Part shown: positions 33,441-49,804 of the stretch, piece after piece
Layout of the letters: the number at the start of each line of letters is the position of its first letter
Numbering within the stretch: the stretch's first letter is position 1
Source of the DNA: Escherichia phage NHEP1
Strand: one strand, 5' to 3'
Sequence record: PQ511146.1
Length of the DNA stretch: 64,000 bases
Notes under the pieces: generated by a model
Database searches by the model: none
Seen by the model: only the letters and a program-made list of their open reading frames with translations
What the model was told of the DNA's origin: nothing
Translations under genes and position numbers: made by a program

Positions 33441-33442
33441 TC

Positions 33443-34009: not shown

Positions 34010-34065
34010 AAGGTGAGTTATAAAGCATTCATACACCTATCAACAATACAACAAGAGAGACTGAG

Positions 34066-34341
34066 ATGACGAAAGAAGAAGCTGACGTATTAGACTTTGC
34101 ACTAGAGGCTACGCAAGAGGCTCTAGTGTTAGCTTGGAAAATGAACCAACGTGCTGCAGAATGCAACCGCCGAATCAATGAGATCCTGGGTATGTCTATG
34201 TATGATTTCACCATGCATGCTGGAGAGATTCCTGAATTAACTGCTGAGATGAATGATCTTGACAATAAAATTAATATCATTCTGAAGACAGCAGAAACAA
34301 CTCACCAAACCGCCCGTAAATTTATCAACGAGAAGGTGTGA
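34066..34341 (+). CDS. hypothetical protein (91 aa)
   Basis: ATG after AAGAGAGA. Confidence 0.5.
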   Translation: MTKEEADVLDFALEATQEALVLAWKMNQRAAECNRRINEILGMSMYDFTMHAGEIPELTAEMNDLDNKINIILKTAETTHQTARKFINEKV

Positions 34342-34343
34342 AT

Positions 34344-34817
34344 ATGGACTACAGCTACTGCGGAGAAGAAGTACCTTTTAACTACAGCAATCTCGCCACG
34401 AGTAATCCATATGAGACTCGTCACGGCACACACATCATTGCTATTGACTTTGATGGAACGTTTAATGCGAGCCCTTTCATCTTCTCCCGCCTTATTAAGG
34501 ACCTGAAGAAGGAAGGGTGGACAGTCTATCTTGTGACTTTCCGATTCATCACTCAAGACAACGTGGACATCGAATACTGGCGCAAGGAGTTAGATGTTGG
34601 AGTGTTTTATACTGGAGGCGTTCAGAAGGCCGCTTATCTGGCGCAGTTTGATATCTACCCAGACATCTGGGTTGATGATTCTCCAGCTTGCATTCCGGCT
34701 AAGAATCAGTTAGAGTTTGCAATGAAGGAGATTGAGTATAAGTCTGACGCTAAGCGTAACGGATGGCCCTTTATTATTGAAGATTACCCAGATCCTGAAC
34801 CGGAGAAAGAACCATGA
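34344..34817 (+). CDS. HAD-superfamily phosphatase (putative nucleotidase)
   Basis: motif I IAIDFDGT, motif II LVTFR, motif IV IWVDDSP; ATG 7 nt after GAGAAGG. Confidence 0.55.
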   Translation: MDYSYCGEEVPFNYSNLATSNPYETRHGTHIIAIDFDGTFNASPFIFSRLIKDLKKEGWTVYLVTFRFITQDNVDIEYWRKELDVGVFYTGGVQKAAYLAQFDIYPDIWVDDSPACIPAKNQLEFAMKEIEYKSDAKRNGWPFIIEDYPDPEPEKEP

Positions 34818-34984
34818 AACGAAGATACCATTACGTGATGTGGAAGTTATATCATGGTGCTGCTAAGGCTTATCGAGCCGTGTTTGGTAATGACAATCAC
34901 TGCATTATGTTACACCTTACATCCATTGAGCATCACAATGAGTGGATTCGTGCAATCGTAATAGGTGACAAAGACTTTAAGTAA
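34814..34984 (+). CDS. small hypothetical protein (56 aa, not in ORF track)
   Basis: ATGA overlap with upstream stop suggests translational coupling; below the track length cutoff. Confidence 0.35.
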   Translation: MKRRYHYVMWKLYHGAAKAYRAVFGNDNHCIMLHLTSIEHHNEWIRAIVIGDKDFK

Positions 34985-35014
34985 AGTATGGCTTTCGAGA
35001 TGGAGACTGACTAA

Positions 35015-35398
35015 ATGTGCAAGTGTAAATCTTATAATTGGAAAGTGAAAGGTGCCAAGCATCCAAATGTTATCGTTGATGTGCCTAAAAAGCTCCGTGA
35101 CGGCAAAAAACGTGTGTGCCTTGATAAGTGCATGGCTAAACCTATCATGAGCCTATGGGCGGCAGGATTGAAGACCTTAAACTGCTGCTGTGGTCATAAC
35201 AAACGCCCACCAAGCATTATCATACCGGAGAATGCAGATCCTAAAGCATATGCCAAGATACTGACCCGCTACTACAGCACCTTCTTGATTGGAAAATGGT
35301 GCCACGATGAACTCCAGTGGTGGATAGCGTATGGCGGTCTTGGTGCTGCTTTAGGTTTCCCAGCTTTATCAGATAAATCTGTCAAGGTATCGTCGTAA
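35015..35398 (+). CDS. Cys-rich hypothetical protein (127 aa)
   Basis: ATG 8 nt after GGAGA; CxCx...CLDKC...CCCGH. Confidence 0.5.
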   Translation: MCKCKSYNWKVKGAKHPNVIVDVPKKLRDGKKRVCLDKCMAKPIMSLWAAGLKTLNCCCGHNKRPPSIIIPENADPKAYAKILTRYYSTFLIGKWCHDELQWWIAYGGLGAALGFPALSDKSVKVSS

Positions 35399-35502
35399 CC
35401 TATTTTAAGGCCTCAAACGAGGCCTATGCCTTCATAAACTACCTGCCTCTGTGTGATTACCCTTCTAAATAAAATACCCTCTCAAATTGCTTAAAATTAA
35501 GC

Positions 35503-35531
35503 TTGACATCAACACCAGATTTATATATGAT
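35503..35531 (+). promoter_or_regulatory. sigma70-like promoter (TTGACA-17-TATGAT)
   Basis: intergenic; consensus -35, 5/6 -10; the track TTG start at 35487 lies upstream of it. Confidence 0.55.
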
Positions 35532-35561
35532 TATCTCATCAACCAAGCAGAGGAGATTGTC

Positions 35562-35969
35562 ATGGATAATCTTGCGAGTGTGAACGTCGAAATTGTTAAA
35601 CTAAAGTTCTTGGGCTTTCGAGACCCTAATTCTCTAACAGCTATACTGATGGATACCCACTTCACACCTGGGAAAGAGTACACTGCCTTCCGTTATATTT
35701 GTGGAGATCACGAATCGGCCTATAGTGTGAATACAAACCTCGGCGAGGGATATTTCATCAAAGATATCACAGATCACTTGTGGGGTATGTGGGAATTGGT
35801 GGAAGAAGAGAATAAATCCCTTCCCAAAGAGATTTGGGTGCACACCTTCCACACAGGTAAGTTCGGAGGTACGGAACATAAGTCTATCCACTATGAAGAA
35901 GAAAGTGCCATCAAACAACAAGCTGTGCTTGGTGGATCTGTAGAAAAATTTGTTAAATGCGAGGACTGA
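35562..35969 (+). CDS. hypothetical protein (135 aa)
   Basis: ATG 5 nt after AGGAGA. Confidence 0.55.
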   Translation: MDNLASVNVEIVKLKFLGFRDPNSLTAILMDTHFTPGKEYTAFRYICGDHESAYSVNTNLGEGYFIKDITDHLWGMWELVEEENKSLPKEIWVHTFHTGKFGGTEHKSIHYEEESAIKQQAVLGGSVEKFVKCED

Positions 35970-35972
35970 GAA

Positions 35973-36173
35973 ATGGCTGATTTTTGTAAAGATTGCTCTG
36001 AAGAGTTGTTTGGCTTTGACTGCAAAGATTTGGAAGGTCTGATCACTGAGGATCAGTGGAAGGAAGGCTATGCAGCACCTGTTATTTGTGAAGGTTGTGG
36101 CTATACCTATGTTGACCATAAAGGTAAGCGCGTCAAGCCGTCTGAAGATGGGGCATGTTGGGAGTATTACTAA
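35973..36173 (+). CDS. zinc-ribbon protein (66 aa)
   Basis: ATG 7 nt after GAGGA; CKDC...CEGC. Confidence 0.5.
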   Translation: MADFCKDCSEELFGFDCKDLEGLITEDQWKEGYAAPVICEGCGYTYVDHKGKRVKPSEDGACWEYY

Positions 36174-36176
36174 CTA

Positions 36177-36210
36177 TAAAAAGAAAGGGGCCATTTGGCC
36201 CCTTTTTTAT
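36177..36210. terminator. bidirectional rho-independent terminator (GGGGCC-AUUU-GGCCCC flanked by A-run and U-run)
   Basis: lies between the convergent plus module (ends 36173) and minus structural operon (ends 36221). Confidence 0.7.
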
Positions 36211-36220: not shown

Positions 36221-39200
36221 TTAAAGAGAGAAAGTCGCGTAGGCTCCCAGACGATACTGCTGATCACCAGGGAACATAACACCTATAGAGGCTGTCCCTA
36301 GAATCCTGCCTTCCTTTCCAGACTCCATTCTGAACCCTACCCATCCGGAACTCCTTGCAGCCTCGATGTTGTCGCTATACCCAAAAGTGGCAAGCTCGTC
36401 AACACCAGCTCCAAACAGCAACTGAAGCTGACTTCTCGGAAGCCCTATAATTTCAGGAATATATGCACCAAAGTACACCATCTGCCCTACCTTAGGACCG
36501 CTGCCGTACTCCATCGGCTTGCTTGTAGAGAAAGTCTTCATACCAGAAGTCCCTGCCGGATTAGGGTATGCCCCGTTTGTTGCTGTGCCTATCCACATTC
36601 TCCACTGAGGTGCCATCTGTCTGACAGTGAAAGATGTTGAAGACGTTTTGCGGCCTGCATCATCCGTAACTACAAACTTTATAGTGACATTACCAGGGGC
36701 TTTAAATGTTACCAATCCTGTGGTAGCATCCACTGTTGCAATGTTAGTATTACTACTTTCCCAAGTCTTTCTAATCCCTGGCACATTGGAAGGGGTAATA
36801 GAAGGTTCCTGCATCTGCAGTTTACCGCCCACAATCCCTATGCCGTTACCTGGATTATACAACGCACCAACTTCATCTACAATGTTACCTGCCTTGAGGC
36901 TGTACTTTTTAGAGAAGTTGTAAGTGCCGTTATATGCGTGTGTCCCTGAGAAGGTTACATCTGCCTTGCCGTTGGAGATGCAAACCAAAGCATACTTCCT
37001 GTCAGGCAACTGTGCCCCAGTTTCTGGGTGAGTTTTACCCACCTGGAACACGCTCGGGTCAGTAGAGTCGTGGCTATCACTAACAGAGCTTGGACCACCC
37101 ATCAACTGTGACAAGCAATTCCTTACCCATGTCCAGTTATTGTCACTGGAGAAGTCTACAGTCAAATCAAACACAACCCACTCATTTGGCTTCCACACAG
37201 GTGTTGTGATCAACTTACCAACACCCCCACCCTGAAGAGTAGGAGATTGTTCAGTGATCAGGGCAGAGTATGCCAGAGTGCCCAACTGCATAGTCTGGCT
37301 TGCTGTCCTCACTACCTTAGAATCAGCATCTGTGAAGTTGTTGATGATCTGGAATGTGCCATAAGTGTTTTTACAGGTAATTCTGGCGTTCAGTGTGTCA
37401 ATCTTCCTCACATCTGCCATAGCAGTGTTAGACACAGAGAAGTCAGAAGCTTTAGCTGAGTTTGCTGCAACAGCCGGATCAACGTTGAGGGTTGCGTTGA
37501 ACTGGCAGGCAGGAGTAACCAGCAGCTTGTTATCACCTATTTGCTTCCATGAAACACTTTGAACAGGGAGATTCCATTTAATACCTGAGAAAACTTTAGC
37601 AACCCTTGGTCCCAGAGCTCCCGTCCTGTTGTCTTTACAGCACATGGACATAGTGATCGTTGACGGGGTGGCCTGACCAAACAATTGTTGTGCTTTTGCA
37701 GAGGACATGGTGTAGAAATTGTCCTTAACAAACTCATCAGCCGCTAACGATCCGTCAGATCTCCACCATTGCACCTGGTACCCAGTCTTATCCCAGCCAC
37801 CGACCTGCTTTAAGTCCTCCCAAGAGATTTCCAAATCTCCGGTGGTAGGGTTAATTGCCGCAGTTCCTGGTGTTCCAGATGACCATATTGGGATATCGAA
37901 CCACGCTGGTTTAACAGACTGCACTGCGTTAGGTCCTATTGCAGCAGCAAGTTGTTGACCCATCAATACGCGAGCATCTTTCACCAGACCCCACTCAATC
38001 ATAGACCCAGAGTAACCCTCTTTCTTATATGCGGATGACCCATTCAAGTGAATAAGTCTACTTGTGCCGAAGTTATGTGCTCCACCGCCGTTGTCGTCTG
38101 CAAAATTGGTTATGATTCTATCCCTGATGTTTTTCCATGCCCTGCCCCCAATCTCGTAGTCATGGTCATAACATCTTTGCAGCGTTGTCCAGCAAATGAT
38201 CGCCATCCTTCTGCCGTTACTGAAGCCAAAAGCCTGATCGTTAAGCTCTCTCCACAAATAGCAGTTAGTGGTCCACATAGCTCTGTGAATGTTGAACCAG
38301 TTTATAGACTTGGCTGAGTTATCCCACTGAGTCCCAGGTAATTCAGGCCACACTGCATTAACCAGCATGTCTTCTGTTCCTGCATCAACCAAGAACCCTC
38401 TTACCTTTTTACCCATGCCTACCCTGTCTTTTGCAATCCAACTGCCAAACAATCTCAGTTTTGGACCGTAAACAACATCTTCCGGATGCTCAAAAGAGAC
38501 ATACTTCAGATATACTGTAGGGTCACCATAGGTGCCATCACAAACAGCTTTGTGCATGTTCTCGCCAAGGTCTAGACGAAGTCCTGTTACAACTTTTGAC
38601 GTGTCGGTGAATTTGTCTGTTAAATCAAATTCATACCACCACCAACCTGCACCCAACAATACCTTCTTACAACGCTGCGCATCTGTATCAGATATTCTCT
38701 TATCTCCTGAAAAAGGTGAGTCAGCAAACTGATAGTGCAGAGCAATTTCAAAAGGATGTGTGGAGGTCCCGTTTTCTGCAAGGACTTGTTTACCTATTAA
38801 GTCACACTTAATAATCATCACAACACGTTTGTACCCATTTGTTACTGGGATCTGCATAGACATAGATGTCCCGTCCATGTTTGATCTCAGCGCAGTCATG
38901 ATGATATAAGGATCAACGGCATTACCAAGAGTTTCAGGCCCTGGAATTATCTTATACTTCTTAACCTGCCCCATGATGTAATCACTGGCGTAAGTTGCAG
39001 CCTCGAAGCAAGATCCCCCGTTAGGCAGTTCCCCTGGCCCCCAGAAAAATGCGCCATAACAGTTATAAAACCACTTGTTAGGGTCGTATTTGTTCTTGAA
39101 GGTCTGAACCTCGTTGGCCTGTTTTGTCAAGAAAACCTGCGTATCTGTAAAGATTGCAGGGTTTACTCTTGACTGTCGATTAGCATACCCGGTTTGGTTA

Positions 39201-41854
39201 AACCATTGATTGCAAGAGTAATCCCTCATATAATCGTAATCAGAGTATTTGTTTGCATCCTCGTTCCAACACATGTTGAGGTTGGTGCCGCCCATGCATA
39301 CAATATATTCTTCAACGTATTTATCACTTCGAGTGGGAATTCCTATGAACCATCTGTTAACAGGCTCGTCCCAAGCGGTACGTTCATCTTTAACGCAGAT
39401 TGCAATCCAGTCATGTGTCCCTGTTTTCTTGCACACATCCCGTTTCATACCGTAGTAGAATTCTTTGGTATTTGGCTCAGGTGCGCTTATCAGGTAGCTC
39501 CACGCTTGGTCTGCATAGGTTCCGTCAGTGCGTGGGTCGTGATCAAAGGCGTACATGATGATCCTTTCCCCGCCAAGATGTTCACCAAGAGTAACTTTGA
39601 TGTTCACATCTCCGTAACCGTTGCGAACAACATCCATATTGTCAATAGAGATGCCTCTAGGGGTGTAGGCAATTTTCAGTGAGTTATCCTCACTGGTGCC
39701 CCCAAGTGTAATCCCTATGTTGTTTGTTGTCCCGTCGGCATATCTTACTGTGGCTTCCCAGCGTATTCCGAAATATCCTGCATCATGGCTGACAATTTTC
39801 AGTGTACGAGCACCTGGGTGAGGTTTTCCAGGATCAGGCCAAGGGTCTGGGTGTTCGTGGACAGTCAACGACGTTCCGTTTTGCTCGTTAACCTGCAACA
39901 TTTTACCACCTCTGCCGTTAGGGTTGAACTCCCATACGGCCTGTGTCTGCACTAAGTTGTTGTAGGTATTTCGTCTCTGATCATAAATCTCTTGGGTAAC
40001 ATCATAAGTGACTGATCCAGCATCCATTCTGTGGAGTCGGACCATATACGATGTATCTCCTTCTACCGCAGGCTGAGTCCCATTCAGCCCGAAGTATACA
40101 GTGTCATTAACATGGAACTGTTTGTTTCTACCGACAGTATGCCACTTACCGTCAGAAGGATACGCAGGAACTATGGTGTTCCAGTTCAAGGTCCTTGTCG
40201 TGTGCGTTCTGCCTGTGCCATGCTTGTCATGATAGGTTATTTTTACAGAGTACAGGCCACGTCTGTTCACATTCCTGTTATACTGAGTAACAACAACTTC
40301 GTTGGCCCCGCCGTGGTTCCAGTTGGTGGAGAATTGGTAATTTGCATCTGTAACAACCGTACCTGCAGCATTTACCAGTTCAATCTTGTCAATAATGAAC
40401 GTAGCTCCCTCTGGCTGAGGCTTCAATTTCATCTTGACCGTGTCACCAATGTAGATATTGCTAACGCTGCTAACACCGTTAACGTCAAAAATATCATCAA
40501 CACCCCAACTATCTACTGGGACATTTTTATACCAATTCTCAGGAACCTCTGTGAACCCTTGACTATTAAGTCTGCCACCAAACAGGTTATTAGAACCTGC
40601 AAAACTTCCCCTTGGGATGCCTGACCACCAAAGTTTACCATTAACAACAGTAAAGGTCCCTAAGAAACCTTCTCTGTGAATGCCTTGGAAATAAACACTC
40701 TCTGTCCAGCTAACTGGGAGGCGTTGCTCAACGTATTTAGCCGTAGCAAGGGCCTGGTAATGAACAAAATCGGCACGGGGGTTATTGTTTGCAGATTGTG
40801 CGCCAATATCGTTGCACAGGTTTCGAGAGAAGCCACGATACTGCTTAGTACCATTGTTGAAGAAAATGCCACTTGTGCCGTACCCACGAGCCATTATCAC
40901 CTCATGGGTGTAGGTTATATTCAAAGCACGCCAGGCATCATCCCCCCAAACGTTTTGACCATAAAATACGTTAACAAGTTGTTGGTCATCAGGTCTGTGC
41001 ATTCTTTGTGTTGCAACCACTGCCCCGTTCGGACCACACATGAATCCTTTCCACTCCTCATCTGCAGGAATGCCTTTCAAATCGTTGCGAGTAATCTGAG
41101 CAGGGGGCCAAACAAGGTCGTTTCTACTGTTGTTTCTCAGAAAGTCGTATCCAGCAATCCAAAAACCTCTAGGCCCACCGAAAATAACAGAGTTGTCATG
41201 CACCTCGCAGTTGATACTTGGGTTTTTCCAAGGGCCTGTTTCAGGATTTTCTGATGTTTCACCAATCTTTACAGGAGTTGCATGCTGGTTCTTATCTACA
41301 TGTAAAGATCCGTAGGTGTTGTTACCAGACCCGTACAGGTGTAAAATGCCGTCACCCTCAGCCTCTGCCATAACCCAAACAGTGTTGTTAATACCACCCA
41401 TTACCTCGATAAGGCGCTCTGGGTGGGTGTCAAGGTGCAATCCTTGAACAATCTGTTCCGGAAGAGGTGTCCACTCGTTTACGCAAACATCGTTACCACC
41501 TGCCGCAGTGGATCCGATAAGACCTGCAGTGCAACCGATGTAGAAAAACTGGTTATCAAAAGTCCGGATCACAAACGCACGGTCTGCTCTCCACACATGA
41601 TCAACATTCCAGGCCGTCTCGCTCGGGTAGTTTATAGGGTTACGATCCCCAGTGCGACACTCCCCGAACTTGTTATAGCCAGTAATATTAAGCTGACCGT
41701 CGTCAAAAAGTATAGCTAAGCTATTTACATAAGCTACTGTAGTGCTTGTACCGTCACTGTTGTCTATTGGGTATGACAGAACAGCAAGTTCCTTAACTCC
41801 ACCCCTCTTATCGAGGAAATGACGACCAAGTTTTAGCAAAGGGATTGGAAGCAT
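36221..41854 (-). CDS. giant tail fibre / adhesin-like structural protein (1877 aa)
   Basis: ATG 6 nt after GGAG; Big_2-like Ig segment near C-terminus; RCC1-like glycine-rich repeats near N-terminus; last gene of structural operon. Confidence 0.7.
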   Translation of the reverse strand: MLPIPLLKLGRHFLDKRGGVKELAVLSYPIDNSDGTSTTVAYVNSLAILFDDGQLNITGYNKFGECRTGDRNPINYPSETAWNVDHVWRADRAFVIRTFDNQFFYIGCTAGLIGSTAAGGNDVCVNEWTPLPEQIVQGLHLDTHPERLIEVMGGINNTVWVMAEAEGDGILHLYGSGNNTYGSLHVDKNQHATPVKIGETSENPETGPWKNPSINCEVHDNSVIFGGPRGFWIAGYDFLRNNSRNDLVWPPAQITRNDLKGIPADEEWKGFMCGPNGAVVATQRMHRPDDQQLVNVFYGQNVWGDDAWRALNITYTHEVIMARGYGTSGIFFNNGTKQYRGFSRNLCNDIGAQSANNNPRADFVHYQALATAKYVEQRLPVSWTESVYFQGIHREGFLGTFTVVNGKLWWSGIPRGSFAGSNNLFGGRLNSQGFTEVPENWYKNVPVDSWGVDDIFDVNGVSSVSNIYIGDTVKMKLKPQPEGATFIIDKIELVNAAGTVVTDANYQFSTNWNHGGANEVVVTQYNRNVNRRGLYSVKITYHDKHGTGRTHTTRTLNWNTIVPAYPSDGKWHTVGRNKQFHVNDTVYFGLNGTQPAVEGDTSYMVRLHRMDAGSVTYDVTQEIYDQRRNTYNNLVQTQAVWEFNPNGRGGKMLQVNEQNGTSLTVHEHPDPWPDPGKPHPGARTLKIVSHDAGYFGIRWEATVRYADGTTNNIGITLGGTSEDNSLKIAYTPRGISIDNMDVVRNGYGDVNIKVTLGEHLGGERIIMYAFDHDPRTDGTYADQAWSYLISAPEPNTKEFYYGMKRDVCKKTGTHDWIAICVKDERTAWDEPVNRWFIGIPTRSDKYVEEYIVCMGGTNLNMCWNEDANKYSDYDYMRDYSCNQWFNQTGYANRQSRVNPAIFTDTQVFLTKQANEVQTFKNKYDPNKWFYNCYGAFFWGPGELPNGGSCFEAATYASDYIMGQVKKYKIIPGPETLGNAVDPYIIMTALRSNMDGTSMSMQIPVTNGYKRVVMIIKCDLIGKQVLAENGTSTHPFEIALHYQFADSPFSGDKRISDTDAQRCKKVLLGAGWWWYEFDLTDKFTDTSKVVTGLRLDLGENMHKAVCDGTYGDPTVYLKYVSFEHPEDVVYGPKLRLFGSWIAKDRVGMGKKVRGFLVDAGTEDMLVNAVWPELPGTQWDNSAKSINWFNIHRAMWTTNCYLWRELNDQAFGFSNGRRMAIICWTTLQRCYDHDYEIGGRAWKNIRDRIITNFADDNGGGAHNFGTSRLIHLNGSSAYKKEGYSGSMIEWGLVKDARVLMGQQLAAAIGPNAVQSVKPAWFDIPIWSSGTPGTAAINPTTGDLEISWEDLKQVGGWDKTGYQVQWWRSDGSLAADEFVKDNFYTMSSAKAQQLFGQATPSTITMSMCCKDNRTGALGPRVAKVFSGIKWNLPVQSVSWKQIGDNKLLVTPACQFNATLNVDPAVAANSAKASDFSVSNTAMADVRKIDTLNARITCKNTYGTFQIINNFTDADSKVVRTASQTMQLGTLAYSALITEQSPTLQGGGVGKLITTPVWKPNEWVVFDLTVDFSSDNNWTWVRNCLSQLMGGPSSVSDSHDSTDPSVFQVGKTHPETGAQLPDRKYALVCISNGKADVTFSGTHAYNGTYNFSKKYSLKAGNIVDEVGALYNPGNGIGIVGGKLQMQEPSITPSNVPGIRKTWESSNTNIATVDATTGLVTFKAPGNVTIKFVVTDDAGRKTSSTSFTVRQMAPQWRMWIGTATNGAYPNPAGTSGMKTFSTSKPMEYGSGPKVGQMVYFGAYIPEIIGLPRSQLQLLFGAGVDELATFGYSDNIEAARSSGWVGFRMESGKEGRILGTASIGVMFPGDQQYRLGAYATFSL

Positions 41855-41902
41855 TGTGTTCTCCAGATAAGAAAACCGCCCCGTCAGGAGCGGTCAGATA
41901 TA

Positions 41903-43648
41903 TTAACGTTGTGCAATAACCACATCCACAATATCACCAACACCACAATATGTCAATTGTAGCAAGGTGACACTGTTGGCTTTGTTGTTAATAACAGGAG
42001 TAGCCGACAGTATGGCATATTTATCGTGTAAGGTCACGTTGTGGCCTACAGCATCCTGAATGACATAGATGATTGCAGTGAACGGGTAAGGTTTATCTTC
42101 AGCCGATGTTCCAGGCCATTGCCCTATTGTAAAATCCCCTTTCGCGTGGACAACATACATATTGGCCTGCCCGTTAGGTGTCCATGTCCCACTAGATGCG
42201 TCAGCCTCCTCTAAGTCAAACTCCACCTTCCCTGCATGGAAAGCAGGGGCAGTAATAGTTTTACCAGCTTCAATTTCTTGAGAGGTGGTTATCTTGCCAC
42301 TGGAGTTAATGCCATTACAGACAAAGTTGACATTAGAGAAGTCTGGCAGCCACCCAGTCACTGTACCTGATATTTCAAGGTTGTGAAGGTAGGTGGTGCC
42401 CGTCCCTGCTGCGTTTAAACTAACATCTCCATTTACCTGCAAGTTTCTGGTAACGTTGCAGTTTTCAGAGTTTGCAGTTGTTGCAGTTAGAGTGGTGGTT
42501 GTCAGCTCGGTAATTGCACCTTTGTTGGCTGTAAGCCCTTCTCCTTCAAAAGTGGCACGCTCATTCACCCTCAGAGTATTTAAAGATATGTTCTGGACAG
42601 ATGCTGTGCCACGAATGACTATAGATCCGCCAACCTCTAAATCTCCATTGATCAGTGCATCTCCCGTGCTTTCAATATAGCTAGGGTAGATCATGGTGCC
42701 ATCTACAGAGTAGGTTATCCCTGTAACGGTGCCTGTCACCTCAAGGTTCTTAACCCTGGTGGTCCCATCAACCTGCAATGTCGGTTCGGTGGCTGCCTTC
42801 ATGGCATTACCGCGAATGTACACGTAGTCAAAAAAGTTATTACCTAGACCATCAAAATGCACATCGTTGTTATTAGCCACTGGTTTCCCAGAAGTTATAG
42901 TGTCAGCTATAGCTCTGTGAGTTGATACTTCATGAGGTTGCAGCTCTGTGCTTCTCCAGTCTGCATGCTTAGGATCGCTCCACGCAAAGGTTAGTGTAGA
43001 AGTATTTGCAGTAAGGATTAGGTTCCTGAAGCGTGCAGTAGAATCTGCTCCATTAACAGGCCCGTGTAAGGTAAGGGTGCCCCCAACTATGGTGTTGGCA
43101 AGTTCTGTAAGACCTTTTACCACCAAAGATCCTACAGTAACTTTCATCCCCTCCATGGCTTTAAATATGCTATCCACATAGTCAACAACAAACTCTGTGT
43201 TTGCTATAGATTCGGACTTATCGTCCATTGGAGGTGTAGGTACTCTCGGGTCACCTTCGAACCTTGGACTGTTAAGTTTTGCGTAGTATTTTGCCATTAC
43301 TGCAGAATCGGTATATAATCTCCAGTTCGGAGATCGTGAAGGATCTGCTGGCATCCTAACCGGGTTAGATTTTGATGCTGCTGGGGCGTACCACCACTGA
43401 GTGCCTGTATCCCCTTTAAACTCATACAACTGGTTAAAAACTGTTGTGGATGCACCATACGCCCAAGGGATTGGTGGCGTTTTAAAATAAAGGGTGTCAA
43501 GCATGGCTTTTCGTACCGTAGGGATGGTGGTCCCATCCTCTACGACAACTTCATCCACAGCGTTACCGTTGACAATCAAGTGCAAACGTTCAGAATCAAC
43601 AATTACTTGATCTACCGCCTGCTCAAAGCTTGTCATGTCTTGCGCCAT
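41903..43648 (-). CDS. tail fibre/spike protein (581 aa)
   Basis: beta-rich repetitive sequence typical of fibre shafts; position in tail module. Confidence 0.6.
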   Translation of the reverse strand: MAQDMTSFEQAVDQVIVDSERLHLIVNGNAVDEVVVEDGTTIPTVRKAMLDTLYFKTPPIPWAYGASTTVFNQLYEFKGDTGTQWWYAPAASKSNPVRMPADPSRSPNWRLYTDSAVMAKYYAKLNSPRFEGDPRVPTPPMDDKSESIANTEFVVDYVDSIFKAMEGMKVTVGSLVVKGLTELANTIVGGTLTLHGPVNGADSTARFRNLILTANTSTLTFAWSDPKHADWRSTELQPHEVSTHRAIADTITSGKPVANNNDVHFDGLGNNFFDYVYIRGNAMKAATEPTLQVDGTTRVKNLEVTGTVTGITYSVDGTMIYPSYIESTGDALINGDLEVGGSIVIRGTASVQNISLNTLRVNERATFEGEGLTANKGAITELTTTTLTATTANSENCNVTRNLQVNGDVSLNAAGTGTTYLHNLEISGTVTGWLPDFSNVNFVCNGINSSGKITTSQEIEAGKTITAPAFHAGKVEFDLEEADASSGTWTPNGQANMYVVHAKGDFTIGQWPGTSAEDKPYPFTAIIYVIQDAVGHNVTLHDKYAILSATPVINNKANSVTLLQLTYCGVGDIVDVVIAQR

Positions 43649-43657
43649 GATTTCTCC

Positions 43658-43924
43658 TTAAGCTTTTTGCTCTTCGTTTTTAACGTGGTCAGGGTGCTGG
43701 CAACCCCACCGGAGCGAGATGAATTTGCTAATAAGCTGGGGGCAAGCTACCGAAGGTGCGTATATCCACGCATACCATTCAGGAAGCGTATCATTGTACC
43801 CCATATGAATAAACACCCCAGTCATCACTGCCATGCCTATGTTTGACCATAGCTTAGATTGGGACACTTTCGTAGGGTCATCAGATGCCGCAACCAACCC
43901 CCATAAAAACTGAGTTAATTTCAT
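43658..43924 (-). CDS. small membrane protein (88 aa)
   Basis: hydrophobic segments; function not assigned. Confidence 0.45.
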   Translation of the reverse strand: MKLTQFLWGLVAASDDPTKVSQSKLWSNIGMAVMTGVFIHMGYNDTLPEWYAWIYAPSVACPQLISKFISLRWGCQHPDHVKNEEQKA

Positions 43925-43933
43925 TTACCCTCT

Positions 43934-44977
43934 TTAAGCATAAGATATGGTGATCCATTGACCGTTTACAAATTTTTGAATAGCACCAGTCCAATAGTCA
44001 CCTTGATACGGGTGTTTATAGGCGTAATTGCCGGAGCACATTACATGCCCAGGGTATACTCTTGATTCTCTGTAGGTGGTTCTGAAACGGTTTGCTATCC
44101 TTACATCTTCAACACCCCTACTAGGCATAGGGATAGTAAGGTTACCACTGCTATCTGCGCTACTACCATTTACCCTGCGGACCACGTTTCTCCCACCAAC
44201 TGTTGCATATTGACCCCTGGCGGTTTTATCGTTACAATCTACTCTTCCACCTATTTGAGCGCTGCCGCAGGATTGTTGTCCATTAACAGTGGCTCTTGGT
44301 ATCGTTACCGCATTGGCATTTGCAGAGGAGCTTTTTGCATCATTGCATTCAAGATTTCCTTGGATAGCCAGTCTTGCACGGTTGGCAGTTATAGCATTGA
44401 GCTTCATAGCCGAAAACACAGGCTGCCCACCAGAAGGTTGAAATCTCCAACGGAAACCGTCTATTTGGTGAGAAGGATCATCAAGGTCTGTGCCGTCAGC
44501 GCCACCGATGTTGTCCATAATCCAGAAATCCATCATCGTCTTGTCTGGAGTTATGGTGGTGTATATCGCCGCATTGTCTGTTGACGCAGATGCAAACTCA
44601 ATTCTTTGAAGACCTAAAGTTTGAGTCTGGATCATTGTGTCTCCAGTCTTGTCAACATAAAGGTCATCCATTTCTTCAGGCGAGTATACATTGAGAACTT
44701 GACGTGCAGCAGCTTTGTCTGGAACGTCTGCCAGATTATTAGTGACCCTTAAGAATCTATTATCCCATCCAGGGACAACATCTTCTGTTAAATGCTTTAG
44801 CCACGCAGAGAGCATGTGGAGTTCAAAGTTAACAACTTCACATGCTATCCTTTGTGTCACATCCCAACCTTTCAATCTCTCTTCTTTGTTCGGTTGAGAT
44901 TTGTTCAACTCTCCTGTATTTTCAAGCACAACATCCTGATTGGCCCAAATATCGAGAGGGATAACTGGTTTAGTCAT
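43934..44977 (-). CDS. tail fibre protein, paralog 1
   Basis: ATG 5 nt after AGGAGA; N- and C-terminal similarity (...VNGQWIT.SYA) to gene 45993..47033. Confidence 0.65.
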   Translation of the reverse strand: MTKPVIPLDIWANQDVVLENTGELNKSQPNKEERLKGWDVTQRIACEVVNFELHMLSAWLKHLTEDVVPGWDNRFLRVTNNLADVPDKAAARQVLNVYSPEEMDDLYVDKTGDTMIQTQTLGLQRIEFASASTDNAAIYTTITPDKTMMDFWIMDNIGGADGTDLDDPSHQIDGFRWRFQPSGGQPVFSAMKLNAITANRARLAIQGNLECNDAKSSSANANAVTIPRATVNGQQSCGSAQIGGRVDCNDKTARGQYATVGGRNVVRRVNGSSADSSGNLTIPMPSRGVEDVRIANRFRTTYRESRVYPGHVMCSGNYAYKHPYQGDYWTGAIQKFVNGQWITISYA

Positions 44978-45036
44978 CACGTTCTCCTGAGAAAATTCCT
45001 TAAGGACTATTTTAACACTTTAGAGAACAAAATGCA

Positions 45037-45058
45037 AGAACGGCATCCTTGCCGTTCT
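45037..45058 (-). terminator. putative terminator hairpin (9-bp stem, AGGA loop, U-rich tail)
   Basis: AGAACGGCA-ucc-UGCCGUUCU followed by UGCAUUUUGUUCUCU on minus strand. Confidence 0.45.
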
Positions 45059-45067
45059 GACCTTTGT

Positions 45068-45382
45068 TTACCTTTTACTATGCTCTACAAGCATGTGTAA
45101 AATCTTTTGTACATCAGCTCTGATACCGGAGACATCTGTCCTGACATCTTGCTTAAGGTCGTTAATATCGGCCTCTAGCTTACTTAGCCGGGTCTCAATA
45201 ATGGAATCAAGTCTATCTTTTGTAACCATGCTATTTTTCACTAAAATGAGGTCTTTCTCCAGCTCATCCAGCCTCTTGGAAATGCCTTTCCATTTGGTGT
45301 GCCACTGGTTGAAAGCCCATACACAGATCGGGACAACGGTACCCATGCAGATACCGTACAGTGCCGCCAAATCCAACTCCAC
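45068..45382 (-). CDS. small membrane protein (104 aa)
   Basis: GTG 4 nt after AAGAGGAGG; N-terminal TM helix then coiled coil. Confidence 0.5.
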   Translation of the reverse strand: MELDLAALYGICMGTVVPICVWAFNQWHTKWKGISKRLDELEKDLILVKNSMVTKDRLDSIIETRLSKLEADINDLKQDVRTDVSGIRADVQKILHMLVEHSKR

Positions 45383-45393
45383 AACACCTCCTC

Positions 45394-45978
45394 TTAGAGG
45401 GTAGGTCGTTCCGGGAAGAAAATGTCAGGGGCTTTAGATGTATCTATTTCAAGAAGTTTTACCCTGTACATTTTCAAATCTCTGATGTTGCGTTTTTGGT
45501 CATCAGTGAGATCGTATTCAAGGTCAATCATGTCTTGATAGGCACCAATTCTAGCAGTAGCCCAAGCAAGTTCTGTCTCTATGACACCCTCTGCCTGTTG
45601 AACAAAGAATTCATTGTCTGTGACAAATTCATCACCAACTAAACGCAAAGCGTCGTGGTGGAGCATAATGTTTTCTGGTACCTCTTCTTTTTTGGCGATA
45701 ACCACACGAAGACCTGGAGCAGGCCACAAGGCATCGGGTTCTTCTGTAGATGTCTTAAGAATACCCTTCTCGTCAACAAGTAGGAAGATACAACCCGGAT
45801 TTTCTTGTCGTAATGCTCGTGATTGCACATACCAATCGCCATCATCATTACGTAAAAAATATCCAGTGTATGCCGTGTAATCCTCAACCTCCTGAGGAGT
45901 CAACTCCTTGGTCTCCTTGTTGGTGTAGTATTCGCCAGATCCCGGCTGGTAAAGCTTAAACTCTTGAAGTATTTTCAT
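45394..45978 (-). CDS. tail fibre assembly (chaperone) protein
   Basis: about 190 aa directly downstream of a fibre gene; C-terminal pattern ...W...YR..L..ID..APDIFFPERP typical of Tfa proteins. Confidence 0.55.
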   Translation of the reverse strand: MKILQEFKLYQPGSGEYYTNKETKELTPQEVEDYTAYTGYFLRNDDGDWYVQSRALRQENPGCIFLLVDEKGILKTSTEEPDALWPAPGLRVVIAKKEEVPENIMLHHDALRLVGDEFVTDNEFFVQQAEGVIETELAWATARIGAYQDMIDLEYDLTDDQKRNIRDLKMYRVKLLEIDTSKAPDIFFPERPTL

Positions 45979-45992
45979 GCTAGTCCTCCGAT

Positions 45993-47033
45993 CTACGCAT
46001 AATTAACAGTGATCCATTGACCATTTACAAGTTTTTGTAAAGGACCTGCCCAGTAGGTTGAACCACGCATCTCTTTTTTATCACCAAAATGCCAACCTGT
46101 GACAACGTAGCCGTTGCGAACTGGAGATTCAGAAACACCATCAACAAGTCTTGCACCGATTCTGATATCCTGTACCCCTGTCTGCGGGATGGTGATCGTT
46201 ACATCGCCGTTACCGTTAGCCGTCACTCCATTCACAGAGCGCACCACATTTCTGTTACCGACAACACAGTGCTGGCTTCTTACAACCATACTGTCACAAC
46301 TTGCGCCGCCATTAACATATACTGACCCAGCCGTCAACTGACTAGCTACATTGCAGTTGGTGAATGTTGCTGTGCTGCTAATGGTGAGGTTATTACATCG
46401 CATGTTATCAACAACTTCAACATTGCCCACCACTTTCAACAACGCACGATTAGCCGTGATCGCGTTCAGGTACATCAGAGTGAACTCTGGGTTAATGTCC
46501 GGCTGAGTTGGCTGGAATCTCCAACGGAACGCATCTACTGTAGATGTACCACCATCATCGAACGCCCCAATATTATCACTTAACCCAAAGTCAAGAGTTG
46601 TCTTATCTGGGCCAATAGTTGTCTCTATCCAAGCCTTATCTGTCTCGGCAGCTTTAAAGTTGATACGTTGCAAACCCAATGGGCCTGTCATTGTATCACC
46701 TGTAACTTTTACATACCTGGCGTCTGCCTCTTCCTTAGTAATAATCCCAAGGTTTCTACGGGCAACAGGGATGTTTAAAAGATCACTCAAGTTATTATCA
46801 CGTACCAGATAACGCCCTTCTTGAGCGGGGATCTGCTCGTCAGCAATGTATTTTGCCCAAGTTCCGAGCATATTGAAAATATAGTTAAGTTCTTCACAGG
46901 ATGGCTTTTGACCAAGATCCCAACCTTTTCTCCACAAATCATCAATCGGGCGTAGCCTGTTCTGTCTGTGGGTGTTAGGCAGAACCTGATCCTCCTCTGC
47001 CCAAATCTCTAATGGAAAACTAGGTTTTGACAT
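45993..47033 (-). CDS. tail fibre protein, paralog 2
   Basis: paralog of gene 43934..44977; AGGAGA SD. Confidence 0.65.
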   Translation of the reverse strand: MSKPSFPLEIWAEEDQVLPNTHRQNRLRPIDDLWRKGWDLGQKPSCEELNYIFNMLGTWAKYIADEQIPAQEGRYLVRDNNLSDLLNIPVARRNLGIITKEEADARYVKVTGDTMTGPLGLQRINFKAAETDKAWIETTIGPDKTTLDFGLSDNIGAFDDGGTSTVDAFRWRFQPTQPDINPEFTLMYLNAITANRALLKVVGNVEVVDNMRCNNLTISSTATFTNCNVASQLTAGSVYVNGGASCDSMVVRSQHCVVGNRNVVRSVNGVTANGNGDVTITIPQTGVQDIRIGARLVDGVSESPVRNGYVVTGWHFGDKKEMRGSTYWAGPLQKLVNGQWITVNYA

Positions 47034-47045
47034 TTTATCTCCTGA

Positions 47046-49118
47046 TTATGAGAAGTCTGGCGGAACAACATCTTCTACATACCCTTTCAGAGCAACCTGT
47101 CCCATATGCAGAACAGTAGAATCTCTGGCGGTAACAGTGATGCTGTCAGACATTACTTGCGGGTATGCCCACACATACTGTTTTACCTCAGGGTATCTAT
47201 ACTCTATGGTTGCCATGTTTCCGCAGATACATCTCCATAAAAATTCTTGGTAATTCCTGGTTGGGTCGTAGCCATATACCGGAGCAAGCTCTTTGCTAGG
47301 AACGAACCCTGCAAGGTATTGTATTTCAGACGGTTGCCAACCTAACTTAACGATAGGTATGTTTACAGACTCTTTTGCCTTTTCAATACCGCCCTGCATC
47401 ACCCAATCGTAGCACTCGGTGCAGAAGAAATCAAGAGCGCCTGCTTCCTTTTTATATTGGTCGGCAAGGTTCAGTTTTTGCGTAAGCTCGGTTTCCATAA
47501 TGGTCGGGAAAAACAGCAAAGCTGTCATCTGAGCCGATGCAGCATGTGCTTTTATTGCCTTTGAAATAGCTGCAATACGAGCTCCAAGCTTACCACGACA
47601 AAATGCTACATACTTGTCATAAACACCGCCAGTTTTAGGATCGTCAATAGTCCCAATGTCTAGTGCATATTCACCAGTCTCATCATAAAACGCCTGCTTT
47701 GTAGGGTAGTCATAAATACAAGGCTTACGAGTATCGGTATTGAACCACCACCACGGTTCACCAATCTGCATAATCACTGGCAGGTTGTTTCTCATAGCGG
47801 CTGATGCAAAATTCTTAAATACTGCAGTAAGGAAATTCATACCCTCTTCAATGGTTGGAGACAGGAGGTAACTACAAGGCGTATAGCCTGTTTTAGCATA
47901 GTTATCGTTCCAGTCTCTCTGGGTCCATTCCAACGGACAGGCATCGCTATAAAGCTCAAAGCTTACAGACTGCATAACGTCGAAGTCATGTCGTTTGGCA
48001 TTGTACATAAAATCATCATGCCATTTATAAGCTGCAGCGTTTAGAGCTCCTGTTTTGTTTATAGACCATTGGGTTCCTGACCATGTGTAGTCATAATAAT
48101 GGCTCATACCAACATAATGGTTTATGGTTCCTGTATAGCCCAGACGCTTGATATTACTCAACACCCTTAAAGGGGATACGTTCCACATATCGTCATATGC
48201 TGTGCAGATCCCAACATCGTGTTCTTTCACCTGAATATTGTTAAGTTGCATCATTTTCCAGCCTGTGTCCGGCTGAAGAAGATCTAGACGCAACTCACAC
48301 TCTACATTTTCCGTTCTCGGGTCTGTGCTATTACCTACCCAATCTTTAGGCATAAGTGGTATTAGAATCCTTCTCACCTGCCGGGGATCAACACCCATCA
48401 TGTTGTTGTTCTGGTCCATCCCGACGCAGTCCTCGAAATCAATATGAATTTCTGCAACATTCTTATCCTCTGAGATGCTGACAGCATATTGAGCTAAAGG
48501 AACATAGATGATTGTACCATCAACAAGGTCTACAGTCATAATCATCTTTTCAGGGGTGGAGAAGTTGCTGGCATTGGTTATTGACATTCTGAACCAAAGC
48601 TTGGTGTTTCTCATCTCGTAGTGATCATCAAATCCAATGCCGAAATGGTCATACTTGTCAACTGTTTCCCAAATGCACCCAGCCATGCCCCCATATGTTC
48701 TTGACACTAAACGATTAATACAGCAGTTATTATCCGCAACAATACAGGTGCTTTCAGTCTGCTGTGTGGTTGTAACCCAGTATCTTGGGTGAAACATTCT
48801 CTCCTCAACGGTATCCCAAGATATTCTGTCAAGATTTTCATCTGAAACTATTGTACATTTCGCTCTTTGTGTTCCAATCATAACCCCTTGGGAGTTTGAT
48901 GAAAACTCCATAAAGAAGCTCCTTGGCAACCTGTTTGGCAATTTGTCAACAATTTCTACAGGGATCTCGATACTGGTTGCCCCAACCGGGATAGTTACAT
49001 CGCCCTCAACATGATCATAATCCCTACCCGGAACTGCAGTATCCTGAACTGTGCGGTAATGAAACCGTGCAGCCATTGTAGAGTAATCACGGTAAGGTTT
49101 AAAAACAGCTGTTGCCAT
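47046..49118 (-). CDS. tail/baseplate-associated structural protein (690 aa)
   Basis: large ORF inside the structural operon; no diagnostic motif. Confidence 0.6.
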   Translation of the reverse strand: MATAVFKPYRDYSTMAARFHYRTVQDTAVPGRDYDHVEGDVTIPVGATSIEIPVEIVDKLPNRLPRSFFMEFSSNSQGVMIGTQRAKCTIVSDENLDRISWDTVEERMFHPRYWVTTTQQTESTCIVADNNCCINRLVSRTYGGMAGCIWETVDKYDHFGIGFDDHYEMRNTKLWFRMSITNASNFSTPEKMIMTVDLVDGTIIYVPLAQYAVSISEDKNVAEIHIDFEDCVGMDQNNNMMGVDPRQVRRILIPLMPKDWVGNSTDPRTENVECELRLDLLQPDTGWKMMQLNNIQVKEHDVGICTAYDDMWNVSPLRVLSNIKRLGYTGTINHYVGMSHYYDYTWSGTQWSINKTGALNAAAYKWHDDFMYNAKRHDFDVMQSVSFELYSDACPLEWTQRDWNDNYAKTGYTPCSYLLSPTIEEGMNFLTAVFKNFASAAMRNNLPVIMQIGEPWWWFNTDTRKPCIYDYPTKQAFYDETGEYALDIGTIDDPKTGGVYDKYVAFCRGKLGARIAAISKAIKAHAASAQMTALLFFPTIMETELTQKLNLADQYKKEAGALDFFCTECYDWVMQGGIEKAKESVNIPIVKLGWQPSEIQYLAGFVPSKELAPVYGYDPTRNYQEFLWRCICGNMATIEYRYPEVKQYVWAYPQVMSDSITVTARDSTVLHMGQVALKGYVEDVVPPDFS

Positions 49119-49804
49119 TAACCCTCCTGTCTAGTTGCGTTTACTGTAATACTTTCACAATAAATGGTTGTAGTGTCCCAATCAGGTCTTACGTCAGGAA
49201 CATATAACAAAGTAGCCAGCCCACCAACCCCGAACTGATTTTCTTCCCACACTGATCCAAAGCCGAGAGCTGTAGAGTCCCCTTCAAAACCAAAAGCTTG
49301 CCCTTGCGACTCCGTAAGACGCAAATGACAAGGCAATGGCAGCATATCCAAGATCTGGTCGATAGACTGCAATATGTCAAAGCAAGTTTTTCTAATGTTT
49401 ATGTCAAACCTGAAATTGTCACCTTTCCACGTATCGAAATTATCTCTTCCGAACAACTGTCGTAAGGTGGAGATGACATCTTCGCGAGTACCACCTCTTG
49501 ATGATGCTGCCTGCTGAATAATCAGTGTAGCACGAAAATCCGCATCTGAAAGCCCATTCCGAAGAATACCAAGTTGATTACCAACTTCGTCAAGGTATCT
49601 TCCGCTGGCATTGTTAAGCAGTCTTCCTTCAGCCAAACCTACCAGCATCTTATCAACATTCTCCAACCTTTTAAGGTACACGGTTAAGAATGTGACTAAA
49701 TTAACCTTCTCAGCCAGAAAATCTCCAGGTAGGTAGTCAAGACCCCCCTGAACAAAATCTGGCAGAGTGTGGATGTGGTTGACATCCGACTTAATCTCTG
49801 CCAT
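49118..49804 (-). CDS. structural protein, possibly baseplate gpI-like (228 aa)
   Basis: size and position after a J-type baseplate-like gene; tentative. Confidence 0.45.
   Translation of the reverse strand: MAEIKSDVNHIHTLPDFVQGGLDYLPGDFLAEKVNLVTFLTVYLKRLENVDKMLVGLAEGRLLNNASGRYLDEVGNQLGILRNGLSDADFRATLIIQQAASSRGGTREDVISTLRQLFGRDNFDTWKGDNFRFDINIRKTCFDILQSIDQILDMLPLPCHLRLTESQGQAFGFEGDSTALGFGSVWEENQFGVGGLATLLYVPDVRPDWDTTTIYCESITVNATRQEG

Follow-up and report, generated by a model that had tools for sequence, protein, structure and literature searches.

The tail-fibre cluster of Escherichia phage NHEP1 is very probably the standard adsorption locus of rV5-like phages

Background

Does the stretch between positions 36,221 and 47,033 of Escherichia phage NHEP1 hold an unusual collection of receptor-binding proteins or the regular adsorption equipment of its phage group, and what would each of these proteins do? 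The window, meaning the whole stretch of DNA analysed here, comprises 64,000 nt (PQ511146.1). An earlier note on this DNA had listed five fibre or spike candidates (1877, 581, 348, 346, and 1272 aa), among them a giant protein and a duplicated fibre pair flanking a tail fibre assembly (Tfa) chaperone gene, and had proposed a multi-receptor, broad host-range apparatus built from shuffled modules. We analysed the locus by Pfam and PHROG profile searches, BLASTP, tblastn, sequence searches against the PDB, AlphaFold2 (AF2) modelling, Foldseek, and a pattern scan for hairpins. Scans for tRNA genes, Rfam families, and tandem repeats (the last over 36000-64000 only) found nothing.

The locus is real but ordinary for rV5-like phages, and both the observation and its interpretation are already in print. 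Three points are added here: the giant protein, judged by its domain content, is not a classical fibre; modules appear to be shared between genera and not within the NHEP1 genome; and, tentatively, the giant may dock on the 581-aa fibre.

Identity and conservation of the cluster

The tail genes form an unbroken minus-strand run from 36221 to 63676, and all genes and hairpins given below with NHEP1 coordinates lie on that strand, except for one plus-strand block named as such. Every open reading frame (ORF) of the earlier note was present there in the ORF list, and the coordinates and lengths were borne out with small exceptions, namely the start of the 348-aa ORF, the position of the 1272-aa ORF, and the composition of the fibre list.

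We identified 108 phage records covering at least 80% of the length of the 10.8-kb region at 92-98% nucleotide identity, the closest being Escherichia phage S127 BCL3 (97.9%), and the flanks of the region gave a like pattern of matches. The matching records are Vequintavirus genomes, including rV5, FV3, Murica, LL12, and phages of the BASEL collection; Bas49 (EmilHeitz) was 95% identical to the 10.8-kb region, and Bas54 (MaxBurger) was 93.6% identical to the adjoining 47034-64000. Gene order, orientation, and lengths in rV5, FV3, Murica, LL12, S127 BCL3, and Bas49-Bas59 equal those of NHEP1, with 1878/1877, 581, 88, 347, 104, 194, 346, 690, 228, and 496 aa, the gpJ-like protein, and 1272 and 865 aa common to the rV5-type locus and NHEP1, and both gene order and protein lengths follow rV5 gp27 to gp42 (supplementary table of PMC3606486; RefSeq annotation). 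For the proteins encoded within the 10.8-kb region, identity to the counterparts in EmilHeitz, S127, rV5, and Murica was 96-100%. Only allelic differences separate NHEP1 from its rV5-type relatives, and in comparison with these four phages they were confined to the gpJ-like protein (81-86% identity, local alignments) and the fibre with a Peptidase_S74 domain (84-93%). The stretch is thus, with high confidence, part of a Vequintavirus, an rV5-like E. coli myophage, and of its standard tail-fibre/baseplate cluster (rV5 gp27 to gp43).

The receptor-binding set is indeed rich when compared with phages in general, but it is the standard, highly conserved kit of every Vequintavirus. All five named candidates exist, yet the list was incomplete, since the 690-aa, 1381-aa gpJ-like, and 865-aa proteins also belong to the apparatus, and the 1272-aa fibre, which had been placed within 36221-47033, is really encoded about 10 kb beyond it, at 57225-61043. 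The suggestion of modules shuffled inside the genome did not hold, as an all-against-all BLASTP of 16 tail proteins found only the paralog pair. That the phage has an adsorption apparatus with several fibres agrees with the accepted view for this group (PMC8594841; PMC12143355). The BASEL study describes a conserved locus with three variable large genes; it also reports three lateral fibre sets that are co-expressed, and a "nanosized Swiss army knife" made up of domains for glycan binding and glycan hydrolysis (PMC8594841). For Bas49 and Bas54, the RBPseg study (2025; PMC12143355) reports nine annotated fibres, three distinct ones of which cryo-electron microscopy (cryo-EM) showed near the baseplate: a short fibre with a Mu-like C-terminus, a fibre with a helical bundle, beta-helices, and a head, and an S74 fibre.

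One group of database records stands apart from this taxonomic picture. About 16-20 GenBank records of the MG0656xx series, named "Campylobacter phage" with Campylobacter jejuni as host, were about 93% identical to the NHEP1 locus (36221-64000); this looks like mislabelling or contamination of the deposits and not a real host jump.

Two short tail fibre paralogs and one assembly chaperone

The duplicated pair consists of short tail fibre paralog A (346 aa; 45993-47033; rV5 gp33 homolog; PHROG 4465, E = 2e-171) and paralog B (347 aa; 43934-44977; rV5 gp30 homolog; PHROG 4465, E = 1.5e-162). For paralog B, the ORF list gives 348 aa from a GTG at 44980, and annotated relatives all use the ATG that yields 347 aa. 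The gene that had been called tail fibre assembly-like lies between them and deserves the name: its 194-aa product (45394-45978; rV5 gp32 homolog; Mu GpU / lambda Tfa type) matched Caudo_TAP (PF02413) over residues 121-192 (E = 7e-12; 46 bits, with the cut-off at 22.1) and the tail fibre assembly family PHROG 136 (E = 2e-36). The Tfa gene begins 15 nt past the end of paralog A.

BLASTP aligned A and B over their full length with 43% identity (E = 2e-95), so the paralogy read from their shared N- and C-termini stands, but the likeness is not restricted to the termini. Similarity peaks in mid-protein, at 60-67% for residues 106-150, and the alignment, along which the two proteins are clearly not identical, places the diverged stretches at residues 46-90, 211-255, and 301-330. 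The last ~14 residues are nearly identical, and a 63-nt direct repeat (78% identity) lies at the 3' ends of both genes.

Matches to known structures were found at both ends of the proteins. Residues 1-108 of A and 1-83 of B matched the N-terminus of the short tail fibre of Pectobacterium phage phiTE (E = 2e-19 and E = 3e-8, respectively), and residues 286-343 of A matched the tip of Mu GpS (5yvq, E = 4e-6). This last match and the position of a Caudo_TAP gene just downstream agree with a tip of the Mu type, assembled with a chaperone, on paralog A, and the nearly identical last ~14 residues suggest that one Tfa serves both paralogs. Neither paralog had a Pfam match, and no T4 gp12 chain was among the PDB sequence matches of either one at E up to 1; the HHpred match of the short fibre to gp12 reported in the 2013 rV5 paper (PMC3606486) was not reproduced here, and the likeness to T4 gp12 as an LPS (lipopolysaccharide)-binding short fibre stands as a functional analogy.

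Two short-fibre places per record were found by tblastn only in Vequintavirus, with one place in other genera, as in Seunavirus, Phapecoctavirus, Justusliebigvirus, and related Klebsiella phages. Paralog A is probably the ancestral-like copy, because it adjoins the Tfa gene as the single copy does in the other genera and matches outgroup fibres, phiTE, and Mu better than B does. The pair itself has been described before. In the rV5 paper, gp30 (347 aa) and gp33 were short-fibre-like with 42.3% identity, and two LPS chemotypes were suggested (PMC3606486); the BASEL study (2021) credited the Vequintavirinae in the strict sense with a chaperone and a pair of paralogous short tail fibre proteins, with homology to Mu GpS/GpU, and found the short-fibre paralogs to be without considerable allelic variation (PMC8594841). 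The paralogs do not qualify as an evident variable part for host range: they show almost no allelic variation.

What, then, would two short fibres do? Both carry the same docking domain and phiTE offers one such site per wedge; therefore they would share that site, form mixed trimers, or have one member attached elsewhere. It is possible, although we hold this with less than even confidence, that the pair provides dual terminal-receptor specificity, as proposed in 2013, with both paralogs in virions (as mixed homotrimers on the six wedge sites or on two sites), each recognizing a different LPS core chemotype and together widening the host range at the irreversible step. Both copies are intact and, at 43% identity, kept in every Vequintavirus when related genera have one; the wedge-docking N-terminal domain is retained in both; 211-255 and 301-330, the most diverged stretches, fall in the tip-proximal C-terminal half; and two chemotypes were the suggestion of the rV5 authors (PMC3606486). 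However, one and the same LPS-core glucose is required by all tested group members, neither paralog is variable across genomes (PMC8594841), and with one wedge-1 docking site per wedge in phiTE, fibres bearing the same domain would compete. Because this glucose and ECA (enterobacterial common antigen) are required by every tested member of the group, on E. coli K-12 the phage may in effect act as monovalent.

The difference in strength between the phiTE docking-domain matches (E = 2e-19 for A vs 3e-8 for B) raises another explanation, which we consider rather doubtful: only paralog A would be the baseplate short fibre, and B would have another role, for example that of an accessory fibre or a connector at some other point of the fibre network. 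The Mu match, found for A only, and the closer relation of outgroup fibres to A are consistent with this, as is a terminator-like hairpin at 45037-45058, within the 87 nt separating the 104-aa gene from paralog B, which parts A, Tfa, and the 104-aa gene from B, the 88-aa gene, and the 581-aa gene and so groups B with a lateral fibre gene. The RBPseg cryo-EM of relatives likewise reports one short-fibre class (PMC12143355), but its resolution of 7-9.5 Å is too low to distinguish the paralogs. The hairpin is a pattern match only, and B aligns with A from end to end, including the N-terminal docking region and the extreme C-terminus, which argues against a separate role.

The homology of fibre tip and chaperone to Mu GpS and GpU also brings to mind the invertible G segment of Mu, in which S/U and S'/U' sets are used in alternation and one type would appear per virion. 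Both paralog genes lie on the same strand in the same direction, there is a single chaperone gene, no recombinase gene is annotated in or beside the locus in the relatives examined, and no inverted repeats were found in 43500-47200. A Mu-type invertible switch was rejected on the repeats, the common strand, and the one chaperone gene, and alternate use of the paralogs in general is extremely improbable.

The 581-aa lateral fibre and the 1877-aa protein

The lateral tail fibre of 581 aa (41903-43648; rV5 gp28 homolog), with an N-terminal baseplate anchor and a C-terminal "head," matched PHROG 4549 and 15437 (tail fibre). Its residues 8-325 matched the long tail fibre of phiTE (chain 9cuy_g, E = 1.6e-77), and its C-terminal 130 aa are common to phAPEC8 gp87, phi92 gp151, and Seunavirus fibres. 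In relatives, RBPseg describes a fibre composed of a helical bundle at the N-terminus, a pair of beta-helices, and a head at the C-terminus, which contacts unassigned density that none of the fibre models could account for (PMC12143355), and this description fits the 581-aa type, to which we would assign that class.

Directly downstream, the 1877-aa protein (36221-41854; rV5 gp27 homolog) matched PHROG 15684 over its full length and PHROG 11922, "tail protein," at residues 38-197, and carries one Big_2 domain at residues 1685-1732 (Pfam, E = 6e-8, 33 bits against a cut-off of 22.8). Its layout comprises a very conserved N-terminal region of ~480 aa, a moderately conserved middle, and a C-terminal third of beta-sandwich/Ig-like character that includes the Big_2 domain. 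Among 15 homologs at 45-96% identity (BLASTP), 13 match the first 76% of the query only; the first ~480 residues hardly vary, and divergence is far higher in the C-terminal part, which can still be aligned. RCC1-like matches (PF25390) occurred in 12 of the 16 family members, all below threshold (best E = 1e-4), with none on the NHEP1 protein itself at E up to 0.01, and the AF2 model of the N-terminal region concerned had a predicted local distance difference test (pLDDT) score below 50. AF2 modelling was performed on the protein as two halves, with a 16-sequence alignment for each. When the C half was searched against the PDB with Foldseek, the matches were all to beta-sandwich proteins of several domains, such as cadherins and S-layer proteins, at template modelling (TM) scores of 0.1-0.2, which looks like a string of Ig-like domains and no more, and the family profile searched against PDB sequences gave nothing below E = 0.2.

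An intimin identity was considered and rejected. An NCBIfam scan of nine proteins gave sub-threshold intimin matches on the Big_2 domain only, far under the family cut-offs, and the "intimin" label found in some annotations of this protein rests on that domain.

The ORF behind the earlier candidate is present, but it is without fibre-type domains and, by its sequence, is not a classical fibre. Because such domains are lacking and virion support in rV5 consists of three poor peptides, a receptor-binding role is putative, as is any place of the protein in the virion. It could lie outside the receptor-binding apparatus altogether, as a Hoc-like Ig decoration on capsid or neck or as no virion protein at all. 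We regard this as unlikely, despite several observations in its favour. A match to PHROG 215 (head and packaging; "structural protein with Ig domain") covers the 285 residues at the C-terminus; fibre-type domains and coiled coils are missing, and the C-terminal half resembles a beta-sandwich chain; the rV5 peptides are poor; the protein was not located by cryo-EM in relatives (PMC12143355); and the gene forms a separate unit flanked by terminator-like hairpins at 41874-41895, between the 581-aa and 1877-aa genes (where Murica has an annotated terminator), and at 36184-36205, where a GC (guanine-cytosine) hairpin with a T run closes the fibre operon (and rV5 has an annotated rho-independent terminator). 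On the other side, the gene is the last of the fibre operon in every relative, and its N-terminal 197 residues recur in Phapecoctavirus and Seunavirus, in annotated "tail proteins" whose position is syntenic with its own. Further, the restriction of 13 of the 15 homologs to the first 76%, with a far more divergent C-terminal part, is the usual pattern of receptor-binding proteins, and BASEL counts the gene among three allelically variable large fibre genes (PMC8594841).

If the protein does belong to the adsorption apparatus, it might be the distal partner of the 581-aa fibre, with its conserved N-terminus (M-[LFY]-P-I-P, or MxPIP) seated on the C-terminal head, to give a composite lateral fibre ending in a non-fibrous Ig-like adhesin. 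We put this forward as a tentative idea that is more doubtful than probable. It is suggested by the pairing of head and MxPIP genes together with the unassigned density on the fibre head in relatives (PMC12143355). In Vequintavirus, Phapecoctavirus, Seunavirus, and Justusliebigvirus, the head-bearing gene is always directly followed by a gene for an M-[LFY]-P-I-P product, and this pairing persists though the remainder of both proteins is exchanged between genera: the fibre that bears the head in phAPEC8 has another N-terminal anchor, and phi92 gp152, downstream of the head gene, keeps the N-terminal peptide and Ig domains only. Against the docking idea, the gene order may be inherited and not selected, the head is present in a Klebsiella phage that has no partner gene, and jumbo phages carry the head on the proximal subunit of a long fibre with a neighbour that lacks the motif. 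The rule that an MxPIP gene follows a head gene does not hold in jumbo phages.

The protein downstream of the 581-type fibre varies widely in size: Klebsiella phage P8734 has none (5489-7249; a terminator follows at once), phi92 has one of 202 aa (9334-9942), Seunavirus one of 567-573 aa, phAPEC8 one of 891 aa, and NHEP1 one of 1877 aa. The MxPIP N-terminal peptide is kept wherever this protein exists. We also considered phi92 gp152 as a homolog of the giant's N-terminal module and rejected it, since gp152 matches the Ig part of phAPEC8 gp86 and GAP31_232 and has only the first ~7 residues in common with the giant.

The S74 fibre, the gpJ-like protein, and neighbouring genes

The 1272-aa lateral tail fibre (57225-61043; rV5 gp41 homolog) matched Tail_spike_N at its N-terminus (E = 2e-10) and Peptidase_S74 (PF13884) at residues 1151-1202 (E = 5e-15, 55.9 bits against a cut-off of 22), and was 93% identical to rV5 gp41 and 84% to the Murica homolog. 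The rV5 paper (2013) gives gp41 as 1272 aa with an endosialidase-type C-terminal domain (PMC3606486). The chaperone domain that the earlier note had seen is thus confirmed; its self-cleavage is known behaviour of the domain family, and in the cryo-EM of the homologous Bas54 fibre the peptidase domain is without density (PMC12143355).

Upstream of paralog A, the 690-aa protein (47046-49118; rV5 gp34 homolog) is a fibre or sheath-like glycan-processing protein with an NCTSP TIM barrel (PF23845, E = 8e-80), NCTSP_N, and Calx-beta; the BASEL annotation calls it a lateral tail fibre with glycosidase and deacetylase domains, and its rV5 homolog had 10.3% coverage in mass spectrometry (PMC3606486). 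Next come a 228-aa baseplate protein (49118-49804) and a 496-aa baseplate wedge protein of the Baseplate_J family (49816-51306; PF04865, E = 4e-9), for which the 49118-51306 pair matched PHROG 4056 and PHROG 6, and which together are the platform for short-fibre docking. The 865-aa tail protein (61079-63676; rV5 gp42 homolog; PHROG 2871) is annotated in relatives with a glycosidase-like domain and gave no Pfam or NCBIfam match here.

The gpJ-like "central tail fibre" protein of 1381 aa (51412-55557; rV5 gp37 homolog) matched Phage_Tail_Tip (E = 7e-39), Ig_J_second (E = 3e-30), and PHROG 31, central tail fiber J. Its counterparts are shorter, with 1279 aa in both rV5 and EmilHeitz and 1199 in Murica. 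Its ends are ~99% conserved, and coiled-coil residues from about 650 to 1050 are variable and length-polymorphic; because both ends are conserved and the centre varies, the variable part is central and not a C-terminal tip. Three small tail-tip-type genes lie beside it at 55557-57125, encoding proteins of 145 aa (DUF6950, E = 1e-33), 188 aa ("tail protein," PHROG 2048), and 196 aa (distal-tail-protein-like; PHROG 1302, "distal tail protein"). With the gpJ-like protein (Ig_J, Ig_J_second, Phage_Tail_Tip), they make up a siphovirus-style tail-tip module inside a myovirus fibre cluster (51412-57125), and the rV5 annotation gives the tail-tip genes as similar to tail genes of Yersinia siphophage PY54.

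Two small genes accompany the short fibres. Between the Tfa gene and paralog B lies the gene for a 104-aa protein (45068-45382; rV5 gp31 homolog; PHROG 5345, function unknown) that combines a transmembrane segment at the N-terminus with a coiled-coil tail; the rV5 table assigns its homolog "1 TMD" (transmembrane domain; PMC3606486), and homologs with 34% identity follow the Tfa gene in GAP31, SPLA5a, and Klebsiella phage P8734. An 88-aa small membrane protein (43658-43924; rV5 gp29 homolog; PHROG 1322, membrane protein, E = 3e-32) is encoded just after paralog B, with homologs of 51-56% identity directly upstream of the 581-type fibre gene in the same three phages; phi92 gp144, 37% identical to it, is placed differently, upstream of the wedge gene gp145. 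Equivalent positions of both membrane proteins are kept in Seunavirus and Klebsiella phages. Comparison of the two with Tfa, of which they might be degenerate copies, and with the phAPEC8 lipoprotein, a possible homolog, showed no similarity. A function in receptor masking or superinfection exclusion, like that of genes adjoining receptor-binding genes in other phages, is only a guess.

Four strong terminator-like hairpins were found by the pattern scan, the fourth, in addition to the three given above, at 51405-51384, and terminators are annotated in relatives at 3 of these 4 places. They divide the cluster in such a way that the 1877-aa gene stands alone and paralog B falls with the 88-aa and 581-aa genes, not with A and Tfa, and they could set the relative amounts of the fibres.

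Outside the cluster, small plus-strand genes at 29418-35969 interrupt the otherwise minus-strand genome, and the GC skew changes sign there (region of about 28400-36200). These genes are mostly hypothetical in relatives; the BASEL annotation gives the first two as an anti-sigma factor and a putative metallopeptidase.

A proposed adsorption mechanism

The conserved kit can be arranged into a working scheme in which each of the six baseplate wedges would carry several different trimeric fibres. The ~346-aa short fibres would dock on the wedge through their conserved N-terminal 80-108 residues, as the homologous phiTE short fibre does on wedge 1, and their Mu GpS-like C-terminal tip would be folded by the single Tfa, which would perhaps stay bound. 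They would perform the terminal irreversible step on LPS outer-core glucose, as genetics has shown for relatives. The 581-aa fibre would anchor on the wedge and the sheath initiator through its N-terminal helical bundle, on the model of phiTE, and direct anchoring on the baseplate is to be expected for this fibre and the short fibres because their N-termini are homologous to phiTE fibres with described docking sites. The 1272-aa fibre would trimerise with the help of S74, and the domain would then be cut off, in line with the behaviour of its family and its absence from the density of relatives. Together with the 690-aa, 865-aa, and gpJ-like proteins, the fibres would bind or degrade surface glycans (ECA, capsules, O-antigen) in a reversible first step; in relatives, BASEL found dependence on ECA first and on LPS-core glucose last (PMC8594841). 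The 1877-aa protein would be a non-fibrous, multi-domain, adhesin-like protein, with a conserved N-terminal module followed by beta-sandwich/Ig-like domains, encoded last in the operon in its own terminator-flanked unit.

Several observations weigh against this scheme. The functional statements about the NHEP1 cluster are all transferred from relatives by homology. Only 3 of the 9 annotated fibres are located in relatives by cryo-EM, with the others unplaced, and the accessible RBPseg text names no specific paralog as the observed short fibre (PMC12143355). Paralog B had no PDB sequence match to Mu GpS at E below 1, although its extreme C-terminus is common with A. The deposited rV5 mass spectrometry table (Additional file 5) comprises 19 proteins and has no rows for the 347-aa, 346-aa, and 194-aa proteins, while the main text of the same paper nevertheless lists gp30, gp32, and gp33 as found by virion proteomics (PMC3606486). 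For gp27, the rV5 data hold three low-quality non-tryptic peptides, which is the level of the non-structural rIIA (PMC3606486), and the AF2 models of the NHEP1 homolog, with mean pLDDT of 43.8 (N half) and 57.5 (C half), are too poor for fold assignment.

The value of the analysis lies in annotating the stretch correctly, as DNA of a Vequintavirus equipped with the nine fibres standard for the genus. Phage cocktails directed at E. coli O157 and other pathogens make use of Vequintaviruses, and knowing the host-range protein would aid engineering. Paralog occupancy and the position of the giant in NHEP1 are refinements of a known system and not a new kind.

Comparison with known systems

Compared with Mu GpS/GpU (PDB 5yvq, 9ki1), the likeness lies in the tip of paralog A (286-343), which is homologous to the GpS tip, and in the Caudo_TAP chaperone gene that follows the fibre gene. 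This homology was already stated by BASEL (PMC8594841), and a Mu-like C-terminus appears in the RBPseg models (PMC12143355). The NHEP1 locus differs in that the invertible G segment and second chaperone of Mu are not present and the fibre genes stand in tandem in the same orientation; the N-terminal docking domain of the NHEP1 short fibres is of the phiTE/Vequintavirinae type and not of the Mu type.

The closest structural counterpart of the baseplate side is phiTE (Certrevirus, Vequintavirinae; PDB 9cuy/9mjn), whose modelled segments cover residues 3-92 of the short fibre and 14-171 of the long fibre. Its docking domains are homologous to those of both short-fibre paralogs and of the 581-aa protein (residues 8-325). 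The N-terminus of the phiTE short fibre is seated on wedge protein 1, with one such site per wedge, and the helical bundle at the N-terminus of the long fibre sits on wedge 2A, joined by a helix of the sheath initiator. The distal parts differ: phiTE has one short-fibre gene, and the 554-aa product, in which a long coiled coil is combined with Ig-like domains, presumably binds flagella.

The Stephanstirmvirinae phages phi92 and phAPEC8 have in common with NHEP1 the synteny of wedge, baseplate protein, short fibre, Tfa, small protein, large fibres, and a last "tail protein." They differ in having a single short-fibre gene and enzymatic spikes (endosialidase, colanidase) in place of the Vequintavirus versions, and in the product of the last gene of the cluster (891 aa in phAPEC8 and 202 aa in phi92, compared with 1877 aa in NHEP1). 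Three fibre types have been seen by cryo-EM in phi92, and in its 2026 structure the single short fibre, gp147, is the downward-pointing fibre III and Mu-fibre-like.

It is in this comparison that the modules of the NHEP1 proteins reappear in new combinations. The N-terminal anchor of the 581-aa fibre (6-112) occurs on the colanidase spikes phAPEC8 gp88 and phi92 gp150, and its C-terminal head (452-581) on phAPEC8 gp87 and phi92 gp151, whose own N-termini resemble that of the 1272-aa fibre. The first 197 residues of the giant are found on phAPEC8 gp86 and on Seunavirus "tail proteins," and the N-terminal and C-terminal parts of the short fibre occur separately in other genera, the tip in phi92 and phAPEC8. 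Judged by these alignments, the exchange of modules has taken place between genera and not inside the NHEP1 genome.

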